The notes below the pieces were generated by a model. It was not told where the DNA came from, did no database searches, and worked only from the letters and a program-made list of their open reading frames with translations. This document shows, piece by piece, positions 3,916 through 21,168 of a stretch of DNA of 30,952 nt (position 1 is its first letter; each line of letters starts with the position of its first letter). The position numbers and the translations under genes were made by a program. This DNA comes from a virus: UHGV virus genome UHGV-0110025. The stretch is one strand, 5' to 3'.

Positions 3916-4143
3916 ATGCGTAATACCGAACCCCGTAGTTTTAATACTGATAGTGACACGCTGGCCGTGCTGCTGACAGATGCAAAAAAAGAAGAACGCA
4001 AAGACCGCGCACTCGCCGTTTCAATCCGTCTTGAGGCGCTGGCTATCCATATCACTAAAGAGGGCATGAACGGCACCGAAGCCGCTGAACTGCTGCGCCG
4101 TGAGGCCACCCGCTACGAAAACGAATCACAGGAGCTGCACTAA
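3916..4143 (+). CDS. Early-operon hypothetical protein (75 aa).
   Basis: Strong SD (aggagagttagtt ATG). Stop overlaps the next start (TAATG). Confidence 0.5.
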   Translation: MRNTEPRSFNTDSDTLAVLLTDAKKEERKDRALAVSIRLEALAIHITKEGMNGTEAAELLRREATRYENESQELH

Positions 4144-4364
4144 TGGCCGACGCAATGGATTTAGCACAACTGCGCGAGCAGGAAGACCGCGAGCGCCACA
4201 TCAGCAACGCGCGCAGCCGTATAGCAGCGTCCTCTCCTTTCCTCTGCGAAGAATGTGACTCACCAATCCCGGAAGCTCGCCGTGCTGCAATTCAGGGGGT
4301 GGCATTTTGCGTGACTTGTCAGCAAATCGCAGAGCTAAAAAACAAACACTATCGGGGGGTATAA
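4143..4364 (+). CDS. DksA/TraR-family C4 zinc-finger protein (73 aa).
   Basis: Motif CEECDSPIPEARRAAIQGVAFCVTCQ (CxxC-x17-CxxC with the conserved PEARR). Typical of TraR-like proteins found in P2/186-family early operons. Confidence 0.7.
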   Translation: MADAMDLAQLREQEDRERHISNARSRIAASSPFLCEECDSPIPEARRAAIQGVAFCVTCQQIAELKNKHYRGV

Positions 4365-4365
4365 A

Positions 4366-6588
4366 TTGGCTGTTCAATTCGCTTATCCGTGGAATGCTCC
4401 ACGATCGGCTATAGCCAGCCCATACCTTACTTATAAGCAACAGCATCGCCGCGACCGTATGTTCGCGGCGATGCTGCATGCTAAAAAGGTGCTTTCTCTC
4501 CAGCCCGACTGCGTGCGGTTAGATGTTTATCGCACTGCGGCAGTGCTGGAGCAAAATCAGGGCATTCAACGAGCCAATGCCTTTTTGATCAGCTTCTGCA
4601 AAAAGGCATTGCCGCGTCTTGAATTGGTCGCAAAAAAATACGAATGCGCGGGTATCAACAGCAAGGTATCAACCTCTGTTTTTGGAAGTCATTTTGATAC
4701 CCAGCTTATGCAATATCTGGCGTCACGCATGGTTAATATGGTCGCCCGATATAACCGCCTCCCGGATATGTCGCGCGCTGATGTTGACCTGTTGGCCGCC
4801 GATATTGCTAATTTCATTCGTGGTGAACTTGCCAACATTAATGACCACGGATTCGGCGAGCTTAAAACGCTGTACACCTGGTATAATCGTGCTGGCTTTA
4901 TTTCCCTCCAGTTCAACGTTATCCCCCCCCATTGGGATCGGGTTGCAAAAAAATATGTTGGCGCGGATGAAATCGCACCGGCTATCGCCAAGATGTTTAA
5001 CGATGGGTGGTGGCGTGGTCGTTTGCGCCGGGTTGCAGCTACGTGGCGCGAACACCTGCAAATTGCAGTCGGCAACGTCAGCAAGAAAAAAAACACCTAT
5101 GCGAGTAAAAACTGCGTGACTGACTGGCGTGAACAAAAGCGCCGAACTCGTGAATTTCTCAAAGGTCTGGATCTCGAAGACGAAGACGGCAACCGTATCA
5201 GCCTGATTGAAAAATATGATGGCTCAGTTGCTAACCCTGCGATTCGCCGCTGTGAGCTCATGACTCGCATTCGTGGGTTTGAAAACATCTGTAATGAGCT
5301 CGGTTATGTCGGTGAGTTTTACACTCTGACCGCGCCGTCGAAATATCACGCCACGACTAAAGCCGGTTACCGTAACAGCAAATGGAGCGGTGCCTGCCCG
5401 GCTGACACGCAAAACTATCTAACTGATATCTGGGCGCGTATCCGTGCCAAACTGCATCGGGAAGATGTCCGTATTTTCGGTATTCGTGTCGCCGAGCCCC
5501 ATCACGACGGTACTCCACACTGGCACATGCTGATGTTCATGCTGCCGGAAGATGTTGAATATGTTCGCTCCATCGTCCGTAAATACGCGTGGAAAGAAGA
5601 CCGCCGCGAACTGAAAAGCGATAAGGCAAAAAAAGCACGTTTCCACGCCGAGTCCATTGACCCGGAGAAAGGCAGCGCAACCGGCTATGTTGCTAAATAC
5701 ATATCAAAAAATATCGACGGTTATGCTCTCGATGGTGAAACCGATAATGAAAGCGGTGAACTGCTGAAAGAGACAGCCCCCGCCGTTTCAGCATGGGCTT
5801 CGCGCTGGCACATCCGTCAGTTTCAGTTTATCGGTGGTGCGCCGGTGACGGTTTACCGTGAGTTGCGTCGCCTCGCTGATACCGAAACCGCGCACGGACT
5901 GAGCGTTGAGTTTGCCGCCGTCCATGATGCCGCCGACGCTGGTGACTGGGCTGGTTATGTTAATGCGCAGGGTGGACCGTTTGTCCGTCGCGATGATTTA
6001 CAGGTGCGCACACTGTATGAACCACGTACCGAGCTTAATCAGTACGGTGAGGAAACGGTATGTATTAAGGGGGTCTACGATTCCTCCATAGGTGCAGGTA
6101 GCCCGATTTTAACCCGGCTCACTCAGTGGAAGATTGTTCCGAAGCATGCTGTTGATTTGGCCGTTGACCTTCAGGACGGCAAAGCCGTCCCTCGGAGTTC
6201 TGTCAATAACTGTACGGGAAGTGAAAGCGATCCACCGATACTGGATTTAACAAAACCACAGAGTCGGCGCGAAAGACGAGAGCTGACCAACCGACTCAGG
6301 AAGCAAAAACCAGCAATACGGCGAAAATTCGTCCACGGAATGGATGAGCAAAACGCAGCTATAGCGAAAACTATCGACGAGATACATCTGACAACCAGCA
6401 TCACAATCAGCCGGGGCGAAGCCCTGCACCTGATGGCAGGTGGGAAAAGCTGTTTTGATGGCAAATGGCTAAGGGGAACATCCAAAGGGGAGATATTTTC
6501 CACTGTCCCATCGAACCAAGCTAAAGCTAGTAAAATCCTCAATCGTGTTGCAGCGTTGGTAGAAGCATCAAAGTTAATAGATGATTAA
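4366..6588 (+). CDS. A: Replication initiation endonuclease gpA (rolling-circle HUH nickase).
   Basis: HUH motif HHDGTPHWHMLMF and catalytic tyrosine motif GYVAKYISKN. Size of 740 aa is close to the 761 aa of P2 A. Last early-operon gene. The C-terminal ~150 aa are lower GC and divergent. Confidence 0.9.
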   Translation: MAVQFAYPWNAPRSAIASPYLTYKQQHRRDRMFAAMLHAKKVLSLQPDCVRLDVYRTAAVLEQNQGIQRANAFLISFCKKALPRLELVAKKYECAGINSKVSTSVFGSHFDTQLMQYLASRMVNMVARYNRLPDMSRADVDLLAADIANFIRGELANINDHGFGELKTLYTWYNRAGFISLQFNVIPPHWDRVAKKYVGADEIAPAIAKMFNDGWWRGRLRRVAATWREHLQIAVGNVSKKKNTYASKNCVTDWREQKRRTREFLKGLDLEDEDGNRISLIEKYDGSVANPAIRRCELMTRIRGFENICNELGYVGEFYTLTAPSKYHATTKAGYRNSKWSGACPADTQNYLTDIWARIRAKLHREDVRIFGIRVAEPHHDGTPHWHMLMFMLPEDVEYVRSIVRKYAWKEDRRELKSDKAKKARFHAESIDPEKGSATGYVAKYISKNIDGYALDGETDNESGELLKETAPAVSAWASRWHIRQFQFIGGAPVTVYRELRRLADTETAHGLSVEFAAVHDAADAGDWAGYVNAQGGPFVRRDDLQVRTLYEPRTELNQYGEETVCIKGVYDSSIGAGSPILTRLTQWKIVPKHAVDLAVDLQDGKAVPRSSVNNCTGSESDPPILDLTKPQSRRERRELTNRLRKQKPAIRRKFVHGMDEQNAAIAKTIDEIHLTTSITISRGEALHLMAGGKSCFDGKWLRGTSKGEIFSTVPSNQAKASKILNRVAALVEASKLIDD

Positions 6589-7346: not shown

Positions 7347-7862
7347 ATGCCTGGATTCCAAAATGCACAGCAAAATCAATTTGATGATCATGCTCCAGAA
7401 ATGGAGATAAACTTAATCGTAGATGTTGCTGAGCAGCCCGTAGCCTTTACCTATCAATATAGTGAGCAAATTAGCCACCTTGCACCGCAATGTCCGCCAG
7501 CAGAAGCGATTGAATGTGACAAAGAATGCTGGCGCTTCACTCTCAATCCGATAACGGACAGTTGCTTTTGGCCTCCAAAAAGAAGGGTTCCTGAGAGGGT
7601 TGCCTCAGACAGTCAGCAGGAGTGCTCTATGTGGGCGTTGTCTATGTATGAATCAGAGCGACAAGCTGTAGTCGCTTATTCTGGGCTTTCTAAGTCAGTG
7701 AGAAATATTAAGAAAACAATTGGAGATCACCTTGCAAGAGGCACGGTAGCTTGTGGTGATGGTAGATGTATGCCTCCAAATAGAAAAGGCCATTTTGACT
7801 TTCATCCATATTTAGATACTGAGTTCCCTGATGGCTTTCAGGTAATAAGAGCATTACCATGA
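7347..7862 (+). CDS. Cargo gene 1 (171 aa), Cys/His-rich hypothetical protein. Low GC. First gene of a two-gene operon in the P2 tin/old hotspot position.
   Basis: SD aaggag 8 nt upstream. Cysteine-rich segments (CPPAEAIECDKEC, CGDGRC, HFDFH). GC is clearly below the backbone. No recognised family. Confidence 0.6.
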   Translation: MPGFQNAQQNQFDDHAPEMEINLIVDVAEQPVAFTYQYSEQISHLAPQCPPAEAIECDKECWRFTLNPITDSCFWPPKRRVPERVASDSQQECSMWALSMYESERQAVVAYSGLSKSVRNIKKTIGDHLARGTVACGDGRCMPPNRKGHFDFHPYLDTEFPDGFQVIRALP

Positions 7863-8947
7863 TAAAATTAGATGCTAAAAGAATCACTGCACCGGAGGTC
7901 GGAGATTACTCGTGGTATTCTGACTTGGTGTATTTTGATGGACCACTGATTTGTTTATTTCGAGGAAGTGGCTATAAGGATGCTCTTTATGTTTGGCTTG
8001 ATAATTCAACCAGAGCCAACCGCTGGTGTTTAATACCTGTATCAAGGTCAACTTTAGATTCCTATCTTAATCAAAGAATGAGTCTAAGAGAAATCATACA
8101 ATCAAACGAATATGTTTATATTTGCAATCACTTTGCAGAAACAGGACGAAAAAATTATAGCCGTCTGAGCGTAGATGATTTCCCTGAGGAATATATGCCT
8201 GATGCTGACTCATATTTATATGAAGAAATATGCACCGATGACGCACTATTGTTAAAGCAAGAACGCACATCTAGCTATATGCTAGGACTGGACAACCAGT
8301 TGTTTATAAATGATTTATCAGAAATTCCAAAAATTTTCGAACAATTGTATTCTTTCCACTATGGACTTGCCCACTTGGGCAGAATTTCCATTAGAAATAC
8401 CATGCTGCGATTGATGGGTAGTTGGACTGGTGGATTCTCAGCAGTAAATATTTTCACTGGTTTAAAGAATGTCATTCCTGTCCTGCACCGCCCAGAAGTT
8501 AGCTCACTTCAATATAACTCCCCCGGACATATTGAATTGAACTTGCTTCCTGACTTGGCGCAGAGCGTTCAGGATGTATCTGTTCGTGTTGAAAATGAAT
8601 TTATTTATGACCGTTTAGAGAAAATCTATAAAAACAATTACACATACTTTAAAGATAAAGATCTATCAGGTTTTGATGAGGGTGGAGGAATTGAGTTAAG
8701 GAACATCGACTCTGAAACCACAGAAAATCTTCGTAAGCGTGTTAGAATTTTCTTTAGGTGTTTAGGTTGGAAAACCTATCAAGCGCAGTTTGATATGATC
8801 GGTGCCCATCCCTTGCAGCAGTTACGCGCAGTTATGGCGTATTACAGACGCCTGAAAACATTACGAGAATATATTGTGGCAGATAAATTATTCATTGGTC
8901 ATTCGCGAGTGCCGGTAGAGCAAATTACTGTGAATACTGAAAATTAG
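7859..8947 (+). CDS. Cargo gene 2 (362 aa), hypothetical protein, translationally coupled (ATGA overlap) to gene 1.
   Basis: Its start overlaps the stop of the upstream gene. Long low-GC ORF ending about 118 bp before cos. No recognised catalytic motif. Confidence 0.65.
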   Translation: MIKLDAKRITAPEVGDYSWYSDLVYFDGPLICLFRGSGYKDALYVWLDNSTRANRWCLIPVSRSTLDSYLNQRMSLREIIQSNEYVYICNHFAETGRKNYSRLSVDDFPEEYMPDADSYLYEEICTDDALLLKQERTSSYMLGLDNQLFINDLSEIPKIFEQLYSFHYGLAHLGRISIRNTMLRLMGSWTGGFSAVNIFTGLKNVIPVLHRPEVSSLQYNSPGHIELNLLPDLAQSVQDVSVRVENEFIYDRLEKIYKNNYTYFKDKDLSGFDEGGGIELRNIDSETTENLRKRVRIFFRCLGWKTYQAQFDMIGAHPLQQLRAVMAYYRRLKTLREYIVADKLFIGHSRVPVEQITVNTEN

Positions 8948-9311: not shown

Positions 9312-10316
9312 CTAATTTACATGTATGTAGAGTTCACCGTCGCCAGACCAATCGGGACACTCTAAAACAAGCCCAAACTGCTTGAATATTTCATCAATGA
9401 TTATTGTTATCTCCCGAAAATCACCAAAACCTGTAATGTGCTGGTCATTAAACTTCCCATAAAGATTCTGAAAAGCAATGCCTAATTCTGATAATTGATA
9501 TCTTATCTTTGAGTTGGATAGTGTAAGGGATAGCTTTGGATCGTATTCTTTAATATTGATGTTTAGAGAATGGACATAACCCATCGCATAAGCATAAGAG
9601 TTGATGATTAGCCTGATACGTTTTTTTACTTCGAGATACATGTCATTCAGAGAAATATTACCGTACTTATAACCCCAGATGAGTTTTTCAATCTCGTCAG
9701 ATACTTCATTTACAACAGTGTCAAGATTCTCTAAAAATAAATCAATAGTTTCTTGAGGGGCAGACCCCGAAGACATGTAATTAGCGAGATATTCAGACCA
9801 TGCACGCGTGGCTGAGATAAGAAGCGCGCTACCATACTCGTTGACTGTAAAATTTTGGGCTAAGCATGTTAGTAAGTTTTTTTCATGTACGTGCACTAAT
9901 TCATGGTGAATGCGATGGATGACTGCGAGGTATCCTTCTTCTTTCAGTTTTAAGAAGCTACCATCATTGAAAAGCTCAACAAAAAAATCAATCGATAGCA
10001 CAAGGGTATATTCTTCACATAGCCCATCATTGCCAATTTTTGTTACTAACTGCCCGACGGCTGCGCCCTGTTTGCTATTGGTAAATGAACTAGGGGATTT
10101 GTGTTGGTAAGAGGATGTTACCTTTTGAAGAGCTTCACTGAAGTTATAGGAAACAATCACGCATTTTAATTTGGAGATATCAAGATTGAGATTTTTTGTT
10201 AAAGCTCGGATAGCTTCTAGTGTGAAATTACCGATATTATTTGCTTCTTGCTCAGTAGCGAAACCTTCGAGGGTTATTTTAAAATCAGTTTCCAAAATAT
10301 TAATCTCCGCGCCCAT
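9312..10316 (-). CDS. Cargo gene (334 aa), putative zinc metallopeptidase-like protein with an HExxH motif. Low GC. Inserted between cos and Q, co-oriented with the late P-Q transcript.
   Basis: Motif IHRIHHELVHVHEKN (HELVH = HExxH, extra His/Glu nearby, possible third ligand in VNEYG about 20 aa downstream). P2 has only about 100-150 bp between cos and Q, so this is an insertion. Confidence 0.6.
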   Translation of the reverse strand: MGAEINILETDFKITLEGFATEQEANNIGNFTLEAIRALTKNLNLDISKLKCVIVSYNFSEALQKVTSSYQHKSPSSFTNSKQGAAVGQLVTKIGNDGLCEEYTLVLSIDFFVELFNDGSFLKLKEEGYLAVIHRIHHELVHVHEKNLLTCLAQNFTVNEYGSALLISATRAWSEYLANYMSSGSAPQETIDLFLENLDTVVNEVSDEIEKLIWGYKYGNISLNDMYLEVKKRIRLIINSYAYAMGYVHSLNINIKEYDPKLSLTLSNSKIRYQLSELGIAFQNLYGKFNDQHITGFGDFREITIIIDEIFKQFGLVLECPDWSGDGELYIHVN

Positions 10317-18274: not shown

Positions 18275-18704
18275 CGCCGTGCCGCAGCTCCGAAATAATC
18301 CCGATATGCTGCGCCTTTTTGCCGACAACGGCCATACCGATTCCCGACTGGCGAGCTCGCTGTCGTTTGAAAAGGTGTACGTGCTTAACGTGGTGGTTAC
18401 CGACTTCACCGGTGACCTTGATTTGATATTCGTGCCGGTGCAGGCGTGGCTGCGTGAACATCAGCCGGACATTATGACCACCGACGACGGGCGGGAAAAA
18501 AGATTCACCTGGATTATTGATATCAATAACGACGATTCGCTCGATATCAGTATCAGCCTGAGGCTCACCGAGCGCACGCTCGTCAAAGAGGTCGACGGCG
18601 CGCTGCACGTCAGCTATGCCCCTGAGCCGCCACTGCCTGAGCCGGTGACGCGCCCGGTCGAGCTGTACGTTAACGGCGAACTGGTGAGTAAGTGGGATGA
18701 GTGA
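18237..18704 (+). CDS. R: Tail completion protein gpR. Start taken at MQKHKSLRKAL.
   Basis: NPDMLRLFADNGHTDSRLASSLSFEKVYVLNVVVTDFTGDLDLIFVPVQAWLREHQPDIMTTDDG...PVELYVNGELVSKWDE matches P2 gpR. Confidence 0.85.
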   Translation: MQKHKSLRKALINAVPQLRNNPDMLRLFADNGHTDSRLASSLSFEKVYVLNVVVTDFTGDLDLIFVPVQAWLREHQPDIMTTDDGREKRFTWIIDINNDDSLDISISLRLTERTLVKEVDGALHVSYAPEPPLPEPVTRPVELYVNGELVSKWDE

Positions 18705-19143
18705 ATTAACCGCGCTGCAGGAACGCCTTGCCGGTCTGATTGCCAGCCTGTCACCGGCGGCACGTCGGCAAATGGCGGCTGAGATTGCGAAAAAGCTGCG
18801 TACCAGTCAGCAACAGCGTATCAAGCGCCAGCAGGCACCCGACGGCACCCCGTATGCGGCACGAAAGCGCCAGCCGGTGCGGAGCAAGAAAGGTCGGATT
18901 AAACGTGAAATGTTCGCCAAACTGCGCACCAGTCGCTTTATGAAAGCCAAAGGCAGCGACAGTGCGGCGGTGGTGGAGTTTACCGGCAAGGTGCAGCGCA
19001 TGGCGCGGGTTCATCAGTACGGCCTCAAAGACCGGCCAAACCGTAACAGCCGGGATGTGCAGTACGAGGCGCGCCCGTTGCTCGGTTTCAATAGTATAGA
19101 TATGAGAATTATTGAGCGGTTAATAATTGGGGCTTTGGATTAA
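18697..19143 (+). CDS. S: Tail completion protein gpS.
   Basis: MSELTALQERLAGLIASLSPAARRQMAAEIAKKLR is P2 gpS-like. 148 aa. Start overlaps the R stop. Confidence 0.85.
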   Translation: MSELTALQERLAGLIASLSPAARRQMAAEIAKKLRTSQQQRIKRQQAPDGTPYAARKRQPVRSKKGRIKREMFAKLRTSRFMKAKGSDSAAVVEFTGKVQRMARVHQYGLKDRPNRNSRDVQYEARPLLGFNSIDMRIIERLIIGALD

Positions 19144-19171
19144 TTATGATCTAATATATTATTTTGTGATG

Positions 19172-19200
19172 AGGCTGGATAAACACCAGCCTTGATTTTA
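19172..19200. terminator. Bidirectional rho-independent terminator-like hairpin (7-bp stem aggctgg / ccagcct, 7-nt loop) with a T-rich tail, between convergent gpS (+) and the HIT gene (-).
   Basis: Inverted repeat read directly from the sequence. T-rich on the plus-strand side. It lies between the two stop codons. Confidence 0.4.
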
Positions 19201-19842
19201 TAGTTTGAAATCTGCGTAATTATCAATAACCTCTAGAACACCGCTGATATTGTTATCTCTGCGCCAATTCCAATTGCCATGTATCAAATTTGCATTAGAA
19301 TAAAGATATCTAAGGAACTGAGATGGTAAGAGTGGTTTGTTGCATAAAAATTCATCATAACTATTACTCATATACCACACATATCCATTTTTAATGTCAA
19401 AACTTAAATTCTCACCTTCAATTTTCTTAAAGTTAATTTCTTTATTTAGAGCATTTTCAAACTCTTGTGTATAATAAACACAGTGTATATGAGCGTGAGA
19501 AATGCACCCTCCTGAACGATCTATATTTTCACCTGCTCCGCTTTCAAAGAAAATTAGAGATCTACCAGATTGGTGGATTATAAATTCATTAAGTTCTCGC
19601 AGAATCTCCTTGCCATTACTCCGGGTATCTCGATCAAGAGCAGCAAAGGAGTTGATATGCCGCTTAGGAATCAGCATCACATGCGAATTATTTAGCGGGC
19701 CAATACTAGGTACAATTAGAAAATCATTTGTTTCTGCAATGATATTTTTCTTGTCATTTACGATTTCATCGTATCCTTTGATAAGGCTAATGCCATTTAT
19801 TTCATCGCATATTCCACAGAACGAATTACAAGAATTATTCAC
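19198..19842 (-). CDS. HIT-family (histidine triad) nucleotide hydrolase/transferase-like protein, 214 aa, GTG start with strong SD. Low-GC cargo.
   Basis: Histidine-triad motif GGCISHAHIHCV (HxHxHxx) with upstream HINT-like elements (CGICDE..., FLIVPSIGPLNNSHVMLIPKRH). SD aggaga 8 nt upstream of GTG. Start overlaps the stop of the upstream membrane-protein gene by 8 nt. Confidence 0.7.
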   Translation of the reverse strand: MNNSCNSFCGICDEINGISLIKGYDEIVNDKKNIIAETNDFLIVPSIGPLNNSHVMLIPKRHINSFAALDRDTRSNGKEILRELNEFIIHQSGRSLIFFESGAGENIDRSGGCISHAHIHCVYYTQEFENALNKEINFKKIEGENLSFDIKNGYVWYMSNSYDEFLCNKPLLPSQFLRYLYSNANLIHGNWNWRRDNNISGVLEVIDNYADFKL

Positions 19843-20356
19843 GTTTATTGTCTCCTGGTTTTTTAGGGAGCAATTTTTCAGCCCAAGATGCGAGTCGGCT
19901 TAGAACTAAGTCTGAAAAATATCCTAATATAAAACAAATCGAGAATGCAATTTTGGTCTTACCATGCCCTTTAATGGAGGATACAAACGTATCCGGAGAT
20001 AATATCGTATAAGAACAAAAAGCCACTAAAGCAGCTAAGAACGGAATAAAAATCCTCCAGTAGAACTTATGGGATTCCCAAGGAAAATTATACTGATTGT
20101 TTTTCCCTCTAGCAGTTACTCTATAAAACCATTTTGCATTATACACCCACCCTCCAAAAAAACCGCCAAGAATAGAAAACAAAGATATTTTATTATTATA
20201 TGACAGCTCAAAAACAAATTGGAAAAGAAAGGCGAGAATGCAACCTATTACAAAAAGAACTATTAAATAAGCAAATTCGAATTTTATTTGTTCACAATCG
20301 TTATTAAAATAAGGCACAACCTCATCATCGCCTAAGGTTTTTTTTCTTTCAGTCAT
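19835..20356 (-). CDS. Small integral membrane protein (about 173 aa from the MTERKK start, four predicted TM helices). First gene of the 2-gene low-GC operon with the HIT gene.
   Basis: Hydrophobic helices (FAYLIVLFVIGCILAFLFQFVF, ISLFSILGGFFGGWVY, WRIFIPFLAALVAFCSYTIL, IAFSICFILGYFSDLVL). SD gaaggtg upstream of the 20356 start. The ORF-track TTG start at 20407 is less likely. Confidence 0.55.
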   Translation of the reverse strand: MTERKKTLGDDEVVPYFNNDCEQIKFEFAYLIVLFVIGCILAFLFQFVFELSYNNKISLFSILGGFFGGWVYNAKWFYRVTARGKNNQYNFPWESHKFYWRIFIPFLAALVAFCSYTILSPDTFVSSIKGHGKTKIAFSICFILGYFSDLVLSRLASWAEKLLPKKPGDNKRE

Positions 20357-20532
20357 TTGCCAAACACCTTCATTTTTTACTGTGAGCCAGGGTAATTGCA
20401 TATTCAACTTGGCTATTCTAATTAATTCTCACAAGATTTCATAGATGTTGAGTAGACCTCTCAGAAGTTGTTTCATTCCTCACAGAATCCATCTCGATTG
20501 CCACTAATCTTGCCGGGCGTCATCCTTCCCAT

Positions 20533-21168
20533 ATGAAAAATCTAAATTCTTTGCAAGAAATCGCACGCGCGATCCGAAATCTCATCCGTACCGGCATCGT
20601 TAGCGACGTAGACCTCAAGGAGGGGCTATGTCGTATCCAGACCGGGGGGATGCAAACCACTTGGCTGAACTGGCTGACCACCCGAGCCGGTCGTTCGCGG
20701 ACGTGGTGGGCTCCCTCGGTCGGTGAGCAGGTTCTGCTGCTGGCAATCGGTGGCGAGCTTGATACCGCTTTCGTGCTGCCGGGTATTTTCTCCGACGATA
20801 ACCCCGCCCCGTCTGCCTCGGCGGATGCGTGGCATGTGGCTTTCCCTGATGGTGCGGTCATTGAGTACGAGCCCGAAACCGGCGCGCTGACGGTCAGCGG
20901 CATAAAAACGGCCGACGTGACGGCATCGGAGTCCATCACCGCAACCGTACCGCTGGTACTGGTGAAAGCCTCGACCAGTATCACCCTCGACACCCCGGAG
21001 GTGATTTGCACCAATAAGCTAACGACGGCGACGCTTGAGGTGCAGAAAGGCGGCAAGATGAGCGGCAATATCGAACATACCGGCGGGTCACTGTCGTCTA
21101 ATGGCAAGGTACTCCACACCCATAAACACCCGGGCGACAGCGGCGGGCAAACGGGGGCACCGTTATGA
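20533..21168 (+). CDS. V: Baseplate spike/assembly protein gpV.
   Basis: QTGGMQTTWLNWLTTRAGRSRTWWAPSVGEQVLLLAIGGELDTAFVLPGIFS...GKVLHTHKHPGDSGGQTGAPL is near-identical in pattern to P2 gpV. Confidence 0.9.
   Translation: MKNLNSLQEIARAIRNLIRTGIVSDVDLKEGLCRIQTGGMQTTWLNWLTTRAGRSRTWWAPSVGEQVLLLAIGGELDTAFVLPGIFSDDNPAPSASADAWHVAFPDGAVIEYEPETGALTVSGIKTADVTASESITATVPLVLVKASTSITLDTPEVICTNKLTTATLEVQKGGKMSGNIEHTGGSLSSNGKVLHTHKHPGDSGGQTGAPL

Follow-up and report, generated by a model that had tools for sequence, protein, structure and literature searches.

A conserved gene pair for a membrane protein and a CwfJ-like HIT protein in a cargo slot of P2-like prophages: a candidate anti-phage cassette

The insert at the gpS-gpV junction

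This study concerns a two-gene insert in the virus genome UHGV-0110025, a stretch of 30,952 nucleotides that is referred to below as the window. The whole window is a P2-like prophage, and two overlapping minus-strand open reading frames (ORFs) occupy its gpS-gpV junction. The upstream ORF encodes a small transmembrane (TM) protein of the inner membrane and the downstream ORF a histidine triad (HIT) protein; together they form a candidate defence cassette whose protein families are new to such a role. A low-GC operon between gpS and gpV had been described in an earlier note made from the letters of the window, and both the GC profile and the flanking gene calls bear this out. Likewise, the coordinates, the strand, the 8-nt overlap, the SHAHIHC triad and the CGIC motif given there all proved correct when they were read from the sequence. 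The features of the insert and its flanks are as follows.

19835-20356, minus strand: TM gene, 173 amino acids (aa), ATG start (ORF list and RefSeq call)
19198-19842, minus strand: HIT gene, 214 aa, GTG start, with GGAG 9 nt upstream
19835-19842, minus strand: overlap of the two genes, 8 nt (GTGAATAA), from the TM stop codon to the HIT GTG (read from the sequence)
19852-19855, minus strand: the GGAG before the HIT GTG (read from the sequence)
19144-20532, no strand assigned: the entire low-GC cargo insert between the gpS-like gene and gpV (GC profile)
18697-19143, plus strand: flanking gpS-like virion morphogenesis gene
20533-21168, plus strand: flanking gpV
20357-20532, minus strand: divergent intergenic region from the TM start to the gpV start, containing a weak sigma-70-like match
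19170-19194, no strand assigned: GC-rich hairpin, terminator-like on the plus strand, between the converging gpS-like and HIT genes

The overlap of 8 nt implies that the two genes are translationally coupled. The GC content of the insert is ~0.30-0.39, compared with ~0.58 in the flanks (300-nt windows). Of 5426 complete E. coli genomes, 8 contain the insert at an identity of at least 99.5%; every copy is flanked by this pair of phage genes, and RefSeq annotates the same two ORFs in these 8 genomes. A close relative of the prophage in E. coli APEC E18055 adjoins rplS-trmD-ffh and shows the gene order of the window (cI, gpA to gpD). Alternative in-frame starts of the TM gene are located at 20401 and 20407, and homologues of the TM protein in other genera start at the position of the 20356 ATG.

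The sigma-70-like match in the divergent intergenic region consists of ATGAAA as the -35 element (20437-20442) and TAGAAT as the -10 element (20415-20420), which agree with the consensus at 9 of 12 positions and represent weak evidence. Promoter- and terminator-like matches of the insert were about as frequent in shuffled sequence. The hairpin at 19170-19194 is situated 3 nt past the HIT stop codon and is followed by a T-run on the plus strand only. No Rfam family was matched within or around the insert.

The HIT protein and its membrane partner

The HIT protein matches three overlapping Pfam families barely above their thresholds, namely CwfJ_C_1 (28.4 bits, cut-off 21), DcpS_C (28.5 bits) and HIT (23.4 bits, cut-off 21.5), and the CwfJ_C_1 match is statistically indistinguishable from the other two. 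The same Pfam pattern was obtained for all 25 aligned homologues (39-81% identity), including CwfJ_C_1 and HIT above the gathering cut-off, and Pfam gave no match to CwfJ_C_2 in the HIT protein or in any of the 25. The residues C9 and C12 (CxxC), H54, H62, C113, H116, H118 and H120 are invariant in these homologues, and so is a C-terminal block N-x-P-L-L-P-S-Q-F-L-R-Y-L-Y ... W-N-W-R, which appears as PSQFLRYLY and WNWRR in the C-terminal lobe of the HIT protein itself. The HxHxHxx signature of the HIT superfamily is present as H116-A-H118-I-H120-C-V, and its three histidines are retained in nearly all of 147 more distant representatives. The AlphaFold2 (AF2) model of the protein (pLDDT 88.3, pTM 0.87) has the alpha+beta fold of the superfamily. 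The assignment to the HIT superfamily is real, though weak at the sequence level. In the predicted structure, the protein is a single chain with two HIT-like lobes, that is, a pseudo-dimer in which the N-terminal lobe carries the full triad and the CxxC motif while the second lobe is degenerate.

The protein had previously been labelled a HINT/Fhit-like HIT enzyme. Of this label, the HIT superfamily, the triad and the CxxC element stand, but the narrower placement does not. The Hint/Fhit branch comprises single-lobe homodimer subunits of ~110-150 aa, whereas the protein described here has 214 aa and a second lobe, and its NCBIfam scores are far under the cut-offs (HinT, 16.4 bits against 130; GalT, 12.8 bits against 448; ATP adenylyltransferase likewise). 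Architecture and profile scores together rule out a housekeeping Hint, Fhit or Ap4A hydrolase, and the family profile also speaks against the GalT/Ap4A phosphorylase branch. The protein is a CwfJ-like two-lobed HIT protein, and this designation replaces the HINT/Fhit label.

With the classical HIT enzymes (Hint, Fhit, aprataxin, DcpS, Ap4A phosphorylase, GalT) the protein has the HIT fold and the triad in common, and the zinc site formed by CxxC and His in the Hint-type structures 3o0m and 3r6f, which are among its structural neighbours, resembles its own. However, the classical enzymes are homodimers of 110-150-aa subunits and not single two-lobed chains, and a sequence search of the PDB gave E-values no better than 4e-5 for a Hint-like protein and 0.04 for Fhit. 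A viral structure library contained only ordinary single-lobe HIT proteins as matches (TM-score ≤0.41). In PHROGs, the HIT protein matches phrog_23000, a family of unknown function.

The nearest proteins by fold are the C-terminal modules (CwfJ_C_1 plus CwfJ_C_2) of CWF19L1, CWF19L2, Cwf19 and Drn1, at only 11-20% identity, and the CwfJ_C_1 match is shared by 25 of 25 family members. These four proteins associate with the intron-lariat spliceosome, and the CwfJ module also begins with a CxxC motif. In contrast to them, the bacterial protein is a bare 214-aa module with no N-terminal Dbr1-like or other domain; it has a complete HxHxH triad, a membrane-protein partner and no link to splicing. 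It is thus a stand-alone bacterial and prophage protein and not a member of CWF19 in the sense of a eukaryotic, spliceosome- and Dbr1-associated multidomain protein.

For the TM protein, no family was found in Pfam, NCBIfam or PADLOC, none of 120 homologues contains a Pfam domain, and a fold search with the model of the protein returned generic helical bundles only. Its PHROGs match, phrog_22917, is of unknown function. The AF2 model (pLDDT 79.5) shows four long helices at residues 20-48, 53-82, 95-118 and 133-162, in agreement with the four TM helices proposed earlier, whereas a crude hydropathy scan yields just two to three strongly hydrophobic segments. Neither the alignment nor the model contains a soluble domain.

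Two regions of the TM protein are nearly invariant. Residues 64-101 comprise GGFxGGW, then AKWFYRVTARGK, then W..HKFYWR, and residues 145-160 read GYFSDLVLSRLAxWAE; the corresponding motifs are GGxxGG, a basic/aromatic hairpin (KWFYRVTARGK...W..HKFYWR) and GYFSD..LSR. The hairpin has six K/R residues versus one D/E. Because of the positive-inside rule, the hairpin and the C-terminal tail are predicted to be cytoplasmic, and the conserved surface of the TM protein would therefore face the cytoplasm, where the HIT protein is predicted to reside. The two short loops that are predicted to be periplasmic are poorly conserved.

Linkage, selection and genomic contexts

To define the relationship between the two genes, 24 loci with both were compiled by scanning genomes and viral contigs and by looking up exact proteins. 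In all 24, the HIT gene comes immediately after the TM gene on the same strand, and the two matches overlap, abut or lie at most a few tens of bases apart. Hosts of the pair include Escherichia, Enterobacter, Pantoea, Pseudomonas, Vibrio, Halomonas, Herbaspirillum and Desulfoplanes, and further look-ups revealed the same arrangement in Proteus, Burkholderia and Thalassospira. The relatives thus span Gamma-, Beta- and Deltaproteobacteria as well as metagenomes. Even the most divergent TM homologues (36-48% identity; loci L007, L026 and L028) still precede a protein of 215-221 aa with CxxC, HAHxH and WNW[RK].

Adjacency in 24 of 24 loci, together with the overlap in the window, confirms the coupled two-gene unit that the earlier note had proposed. 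According to the same note, a partner that is not conserved, or a frameshifted TM ORF, would have spoken against its reading. Neither was found: the TM partner is adjacent in every close or mid-distance relative examined, and no frameshifted copies were seen among the relatives. The TM and HIT genes are obligately linked among close and mid-distance relatives.

A single pair with reversed gene order was seen. On the metagenomic contig L044 (1173-2460, plus strand), a TM homologue (hmmsearch E 2.5e-26) comes after a much more distant HIT relative, and the pair adjoins an rve-type transposase. The linkage therefore outlasts rearrangement, which is strong evidence of functional dependence between the two proteins.

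The ratio of nonsynonymous to synonymous substitution rates (dN/dS) of the TM gene is 0.04-0.08. For the HIT gene, the proportion of nonsynonymous differences (pN) is 0.13-0.23 and synonymous sites are saturated; for both genes, pN is far below its synonymous counterpart pS. Judged by these sequence comparisons, strong purifying selection acts on both genes.

The gpS-gpV slot of P2-like elements holds the cassette in three genera. A search of the region from gpS to gpW identified sister prophages with flanks that are ~89-99% identical and a slot content that differs. The TM-HIT pair occupies the slot in 8 genomes, and the alternative cargo comprises the following genes.

L030, 1214-2050, minus strand: 278-aa pentapeptide-repeat protein
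L031, 1143-2186, plus strand: 347-aa hypothetical protein, no Pfam family
L032, 1177-2040, minus strand: 287-aa hypothetical protein, no Pfam family

In other sister prophages the slot is empty, with a span of 1953 bases versus 3271. The presence of other cargo, or of none, in sister prophages bears out the idea that the cassette sits in a variable prophage cargo site. In P2 itself, this site presumably carries the moron orf30.

In another P2-like phage (L019), a cassette with 76% (TM) and 66% (HIT) identity is located between gpA and the portal gene. This position is the old/tin hotspot of P2-like phages, from which many validated defence systems are known (PMC9122126, PMC9519451). The gpS-gpV junction of P2-like phages is accordingly a working cargo slot that exchanges content with the established gpA-portal hotspot.

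Further copies were found in other types of elements. In lambdoid Pseudomonas prophages, the cassette lies directly beside an S24 cI-like repressor gene, and the viral contigs L021-L025 have a gene layout similar to these copies. It is located at the tail-fibre end of a Proteus prophage, adjoins genes of a filamentous (Zot/Rep) prophage in Vibrio and is part of an integrase-bearing region in P. chaetocerotis. In L028, a type I restriction-modification (R-M) system (PADLOC REase_I, E 1e-222) and GmrSD are found immediately upstream of the cassette. A P2-like prophage remnant of Enterobacter sp. FB (L011) contains, in addition to the cassette, a Septu pair beside ogr (4023-5754, minus strand; PtuA E 7.5e-90, PtuB E 2.8e-61). 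A GmrSD_N protein is encoded 2.5 kb upstream of the Herbaspirillum copy, and HipBA is adjacent to the copy in L038. The neighbourhood analysis proposed in the earlier note thus reveals a conserved partner and defence-cargo contexts (L028, L019, Pseudomonas). The cassette is horizontally mobile and moves between phage cargo slots and defence-gene neighbourhoods.

In Thalassospira (L035, 8632-10845), the cassette separates a full TetR gene from a 49-aa ORF whose only match is TetR_C_3. This arrangement suggests an insertion scar, with the 3' end of the regulator gene duplicated or split.

The Candidatus Pantoea multigeneris locus L002 contains a degraded gpV at 4989-5385, with an imperfect hexanucleotide repeat that reads (LN)n or (LR)n in the two strands. 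Since the gpS side of this locus is fragmentary as well, the cassette has outlived its prophage there.

The HIT protein belongs to a much wider family. A profile search against 1.84 billion representative proteins retrieved 3440 clusters at E ≤1e-3, 1795 at ≤1e-10 and 37 at ≤1e-30, so that at least 1795 clusters at 50% identity make up an uncharacterised bacterial family. Among the best 150 matches, most proteins are 200-250 aa long and align with the profile over its full length; CxxC and HAHxH are present in nearly all of them and W[ND]W[RK] in most. Fusions within the wider family (P0302, P0311, P0301, P0273 and P0234) join the HIT protein to NUDIX (twice, in both orders), a nucleoside 2-deoxyribosyltransferase-like domain (Nuc_deoxyrib_tr), an S-adenosylmethionine (SAM) methyltransferase or a second HIT protein. 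The TM gene is immediately preceded by a PF06189 5'-nucleotidase gene (E 3.5e-126) in two loci that are unrelated to each other, with 54% identity between the nucleotidase copies.

L038, 8421-9368, plus strand: PF06189 gene on a JGI metagenome contig, with a 7-nt gap to the TM gene
L033 and L034, 8322-9275, plus strand: PF06189 gene in a Burkholderia contaminans genome

Nucleotidase, TM protein and HIT protein probably form a three-gene variant of the cassette. The NUDIX and deoxyribosyltransferase fusions and the neighbouring 5'-nucleotidase indicate small-nucleotide chemistry.

Of 80 loci with distant HIT relatives (25-35% identity), most of them from soil metagenomes, only one has the TM partner. 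In L055-L119 (e.g., L055 4255-7130 and 9295-10581), tandem two-lobed HIT paralogues form part of a distinct conserved cluster that also encodes an HD-like protein (~263 aa), an unknown protein of 262 aa and a sulfate-adenylyltransferase-like protein of 427 aa, joined in some of the loci by a sulfotransferase-like one; the HD-, sulfate-adenylyltransferase- and sulfotransferase-like labels are a reading of the sequences and not Pfam assignments. As these relatives belong to a different cluster and, with one exception, have no TM partner, they were discarded as clues to the partner and give no guidance on the role of the TM-linked pair. The TM-linked clade is one specialised branch of the wider HIT family.

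Function of the cassette

We consider it an even bet that the cassette is a mobile, prophage-borne anti-phage module that consists of a nucleotide enzyme and a membrane effector and protects the lysogen. This reading is based on the obligate pairing, the purifying selection, the mobility, the defence neighbours, the intact triad, the nucleotide theme and the precedent of ThsC, a HIT-domain protein that accompanies 2.4% of Thoeris systems (PMC8565338). ThsC is the only HIT-defence precedent that we found; in contrast to the HIT protein of the cassette it is an accessory and not the core enzyme, and neither ThsA nor ThsB is encoded near the TM-HIT pair.

The search for known systems agreed with the earlier note, which knew of no described system of this kind. 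At E ≤1, no family of PADLOC-DB v2.0.0 matched either protein, while the positive controls (PD-T4-10 A/B, PtuA/B and the type I REase) were detected, and open-access papers and bioRxiv preprints on histidine triad, HIT or CwfJ proteins with phage defence do not describe the pair; nor do papers on the P2 hotspots.

The layout of a small soluble enzyme with a small multi-pass TM protein is also that of Rst_Hydrolase-3Tm of P4 and of the TM-effector variants of CBASS and Pycsar. The former, a system of a HAD-like hydrolase and a TM protein, is carried in P2/P4-type hotspots, and such TM proteins are thought to kill the cell upon infection (PMC9122126). However, the enzyme is a HIT protein here and a HAD protein, CD-NTase or cyclase there, and the TM protein has no homology to known effectors. 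Rst_Hydrolase-3Tm itself is ruled out by its HAD-like enzyme and its location in the P4 psu-int hotspot (PMC9122126), as opposed to the HIT protein without a PADLOC hit found here. The resemblance to CBASS, Pycsar and Thoeris is one of layout only: the insert encodes no signal synthase (CD-NTase, cyclase or TIR), and its TM protein has no soluble domain.

The HIT protein is probably a competent enzyme, as judged by the invariant triad and CxxC motif and the confident structural model. In the HIT superfamily, nucleotidyl transfer proceeds via a His-nucleoside monophosphate (NMP) intermediate. By analogy, the middle histidine, His118, would attack the alpha-phosphate of a substrate NMP-X to form a covalent His118-NMP. 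The substrate, whose level would change on infection, could be a dinucleoside polyphosphate, a nucleotide conjugate, or a nucleic acid or protein that is nucleotide-capped or adenylylated; the NUDIX and Nuc_deoxyrib_tr-like fusions and the operonic 5'-nucleotidase fit with a small-nucleotide substrate. The second lobe, with its invariant PSQFLRYLY and WNWR, probably binds the leaving group or the acceptor, as in GalT-type pseudo-dimers. The HIT protein may dock on the conserved basic/aromatic cytoplasmic face of the TM protein or hand its product to it, and the TM protein would then act as the effector, which either dissipates the membrane potential (abortive infection) or blocks a membrane step of infection.

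A bolder version of this mechanism combines two proposals. The CwfJ-like HIT enzyme would either use reversible nucleotidyl transfer via His118-NMP to produce or remodel an NMP-linked messenger, or sense an infection-specific nucleic acid that is nucleotide-capped or adenylylated, and would thereby gate a dedicated four-helix channel via the invariant basic/aromatic hairpin; at the same time, the bacterial family would be the prokaryotic source of the CWF19/Drn1 module. We regard this combination as decidedly unlikely.

Several observations weigh against an anti-phage function. The missing PADLOC match indicates that the pair is not a known system, and a role in defence is not thereby shown. 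The distant relatives without TM partner are found in metabolic-looking clusters, and the HIT family as a whole is therefore not defence-specific; the earlier proposal of a novel defence system is supported in part, by the conserved pair, its cargo and defence contexts and its lack of PADLOC matches, and does not extend to the wider family. The TM protein has no recognisable ligand-binding domain, and its conservation exceeds that of the enzyme, an unusual trait in a simple pore-forming effector. The contexts in Thalassospira, Burkholderia, Desulfoplanes and L026 are uninformative or metabolic; in Burkholderia, for instance, the cassette adjoins a phosphonate cluster. The SMC-type cluster beside the Halomonas copy has only Pfam MksE and faint JetB labels. 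Finally, no copy of the cassette was found in isolate phages (INPHARED; megablast and tblastn) or in plasmids (PLSDB; tblastn).

A Wadjet system had been considered beside the Halomonas copy. As PADLOC gave no JetABCD hit, this assignment was downgraded to an SMC/Mks-like cluster, which may be condensin.

The greater conservation of the TM protein is also what would be expected if it were the main actor in superinfection exclusion, blocking DNA entry or an envelope step without abortive infection, and if the HIT protein regulated or matured it. The cassette is present on temperate phages of four different types, and in Pseudomonas prophages it sits next to the cI-like repressor, where exclusion genes are classically found. 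However, exclusion proteins usually target relatives of their carrier, whereas the cassette occurs in very different phages and at non-phage chromosomal sites, and the invariant triad and zinc motif argue that catalysis is central. Exclusion is unlikely, although it stands first among the alternatives to the enzyme-plus-effector module; it would itself be an anti-phage function and adds somewhat to the probability of such a role.

An immunity or detoxification function against nucleotide-type toxins appears improbable. Here, the HIT protein would act like MccH, which hydrolyses processed microcin C, and cleave an antibiotic of the phosphoramidate or nucleotide type, and the TM protein would export or exclude the compound. 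HIT phosphoramidases that confer resistance to peptide-nucleotide antibiotics provide a precedent (PMC7157772). The operonic 5'-nucleotidase of two relatives would finish the breakdown of the released NMP, and a sporadic accessory distribution is also typical of resistance functions. On the other hand, no genes for microcin or antibiotic biosynthesis or uptake were found near any annotated locus, and mcc-like genes are absent from all annotated contexts (Pfam-labelled or RefSeq), which speaks against MccH-type immunity proper. The TM protein scored above threshold for no transporter family. MccH-type enzymes are ordinary single-lobe HIT proteins, unlike the two-lobed protein of the cassette, and the repeated siting in phage defence hotspots and beside R-M would be left unexplained.

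We assign a lower probability still to toxin-antitoxin-like addiction, with a membrane toxin and an enzymatic antidote, or to a counter-defence enzyme that destroys immune nucleotide signals of the host. The pair is small, mobile, tightly coupled and translationally linked, insertion sequence (IS) elements or integrases adjoin it in some loci, and phage enzymes that degrade signalling nucleotides exist. Yet the TM gene is the first in order and the more conserved of the two, which is at odds with addiction, and the addiction reading overlaps with abortive-infection defence to a degree that makes it no true alternative. Counter-defence proteins are normally soluble products of single genes that belong to the lytic programme, whereas the pair is antisense to the late operon and also occurs outside phages beside R-M.

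Least probable of all is lysogenic conversion of the envelope, in which the HIT protein would act on CDP-diacylglycerol or a UDP/GDP-sugar presented by its TM partner and so alter surface or membrane composition: an enzyme with an obligate membrane partner would suit this role, but the structural matches are much weaker than those to CWF19, the GalT score of 12.8 bits compares with an NCBIfam cut-off of 448, no glycosyltransferase, flippase or O-antigen genes accompany the pair, and its hosts differ widely in envelope and lifestyle. The antibiotic-immunity, addiction/counter-defence and envelope explanations all account for HIT chemistry, but each of them explains the hotspot siting and the strict membrane partnership less well than an anti-phage module does.

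If the cassette, with its two genes and 1.2 kb, proves protective, the HIT superfamily would join the chemistry of bacterial immunity as a core enzyme, and a new and very conserved small membrane effector would be added. Many such candidate systems exist; this one stands out by its exceptionally clean conserved partnership, a core enzyme family new to immunity and the unexpected link to a spliceosome module. Regardless of a role in defence, the analysis reveals a large uncharacterised bacterial family of two-lobed HIT proteins. Since the nearest solved structures are those of the spliceosome-associated CWF19/Cwf19, this family offers a tractable model for a poorly understood eukaryotic module.

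The gpA-portal (old/tin) hotspot of the window is itself occupied by a defence system.

7347-8947 of the window, plus strand: PD-T4-10 pair, 171 and 362 aa (PADLOC PD-T4-10_A E 6.5e-69, PD-T4-10_B E 3.3e-169)

Because of this match, the window prophage can be said to hold a validated defence system already. In the APEC E18055 prophage, which carries the same cassette, the sequence of the hotspot differs (26% identity at a fixed offset) and includes a 313-aa minus-strand ORF. Between the window and E18055, the cargo of the gpA-portal hotspot has thus been exchanged while the gpS-gpV cargo is unchanged. A 334-aa ORF with no Pfam or PADLOC match adjoins the portal gene of the window (9312-10316, minus strand); the E18055 prophage has the same ORF, which may represent further uncharacterised cargo.

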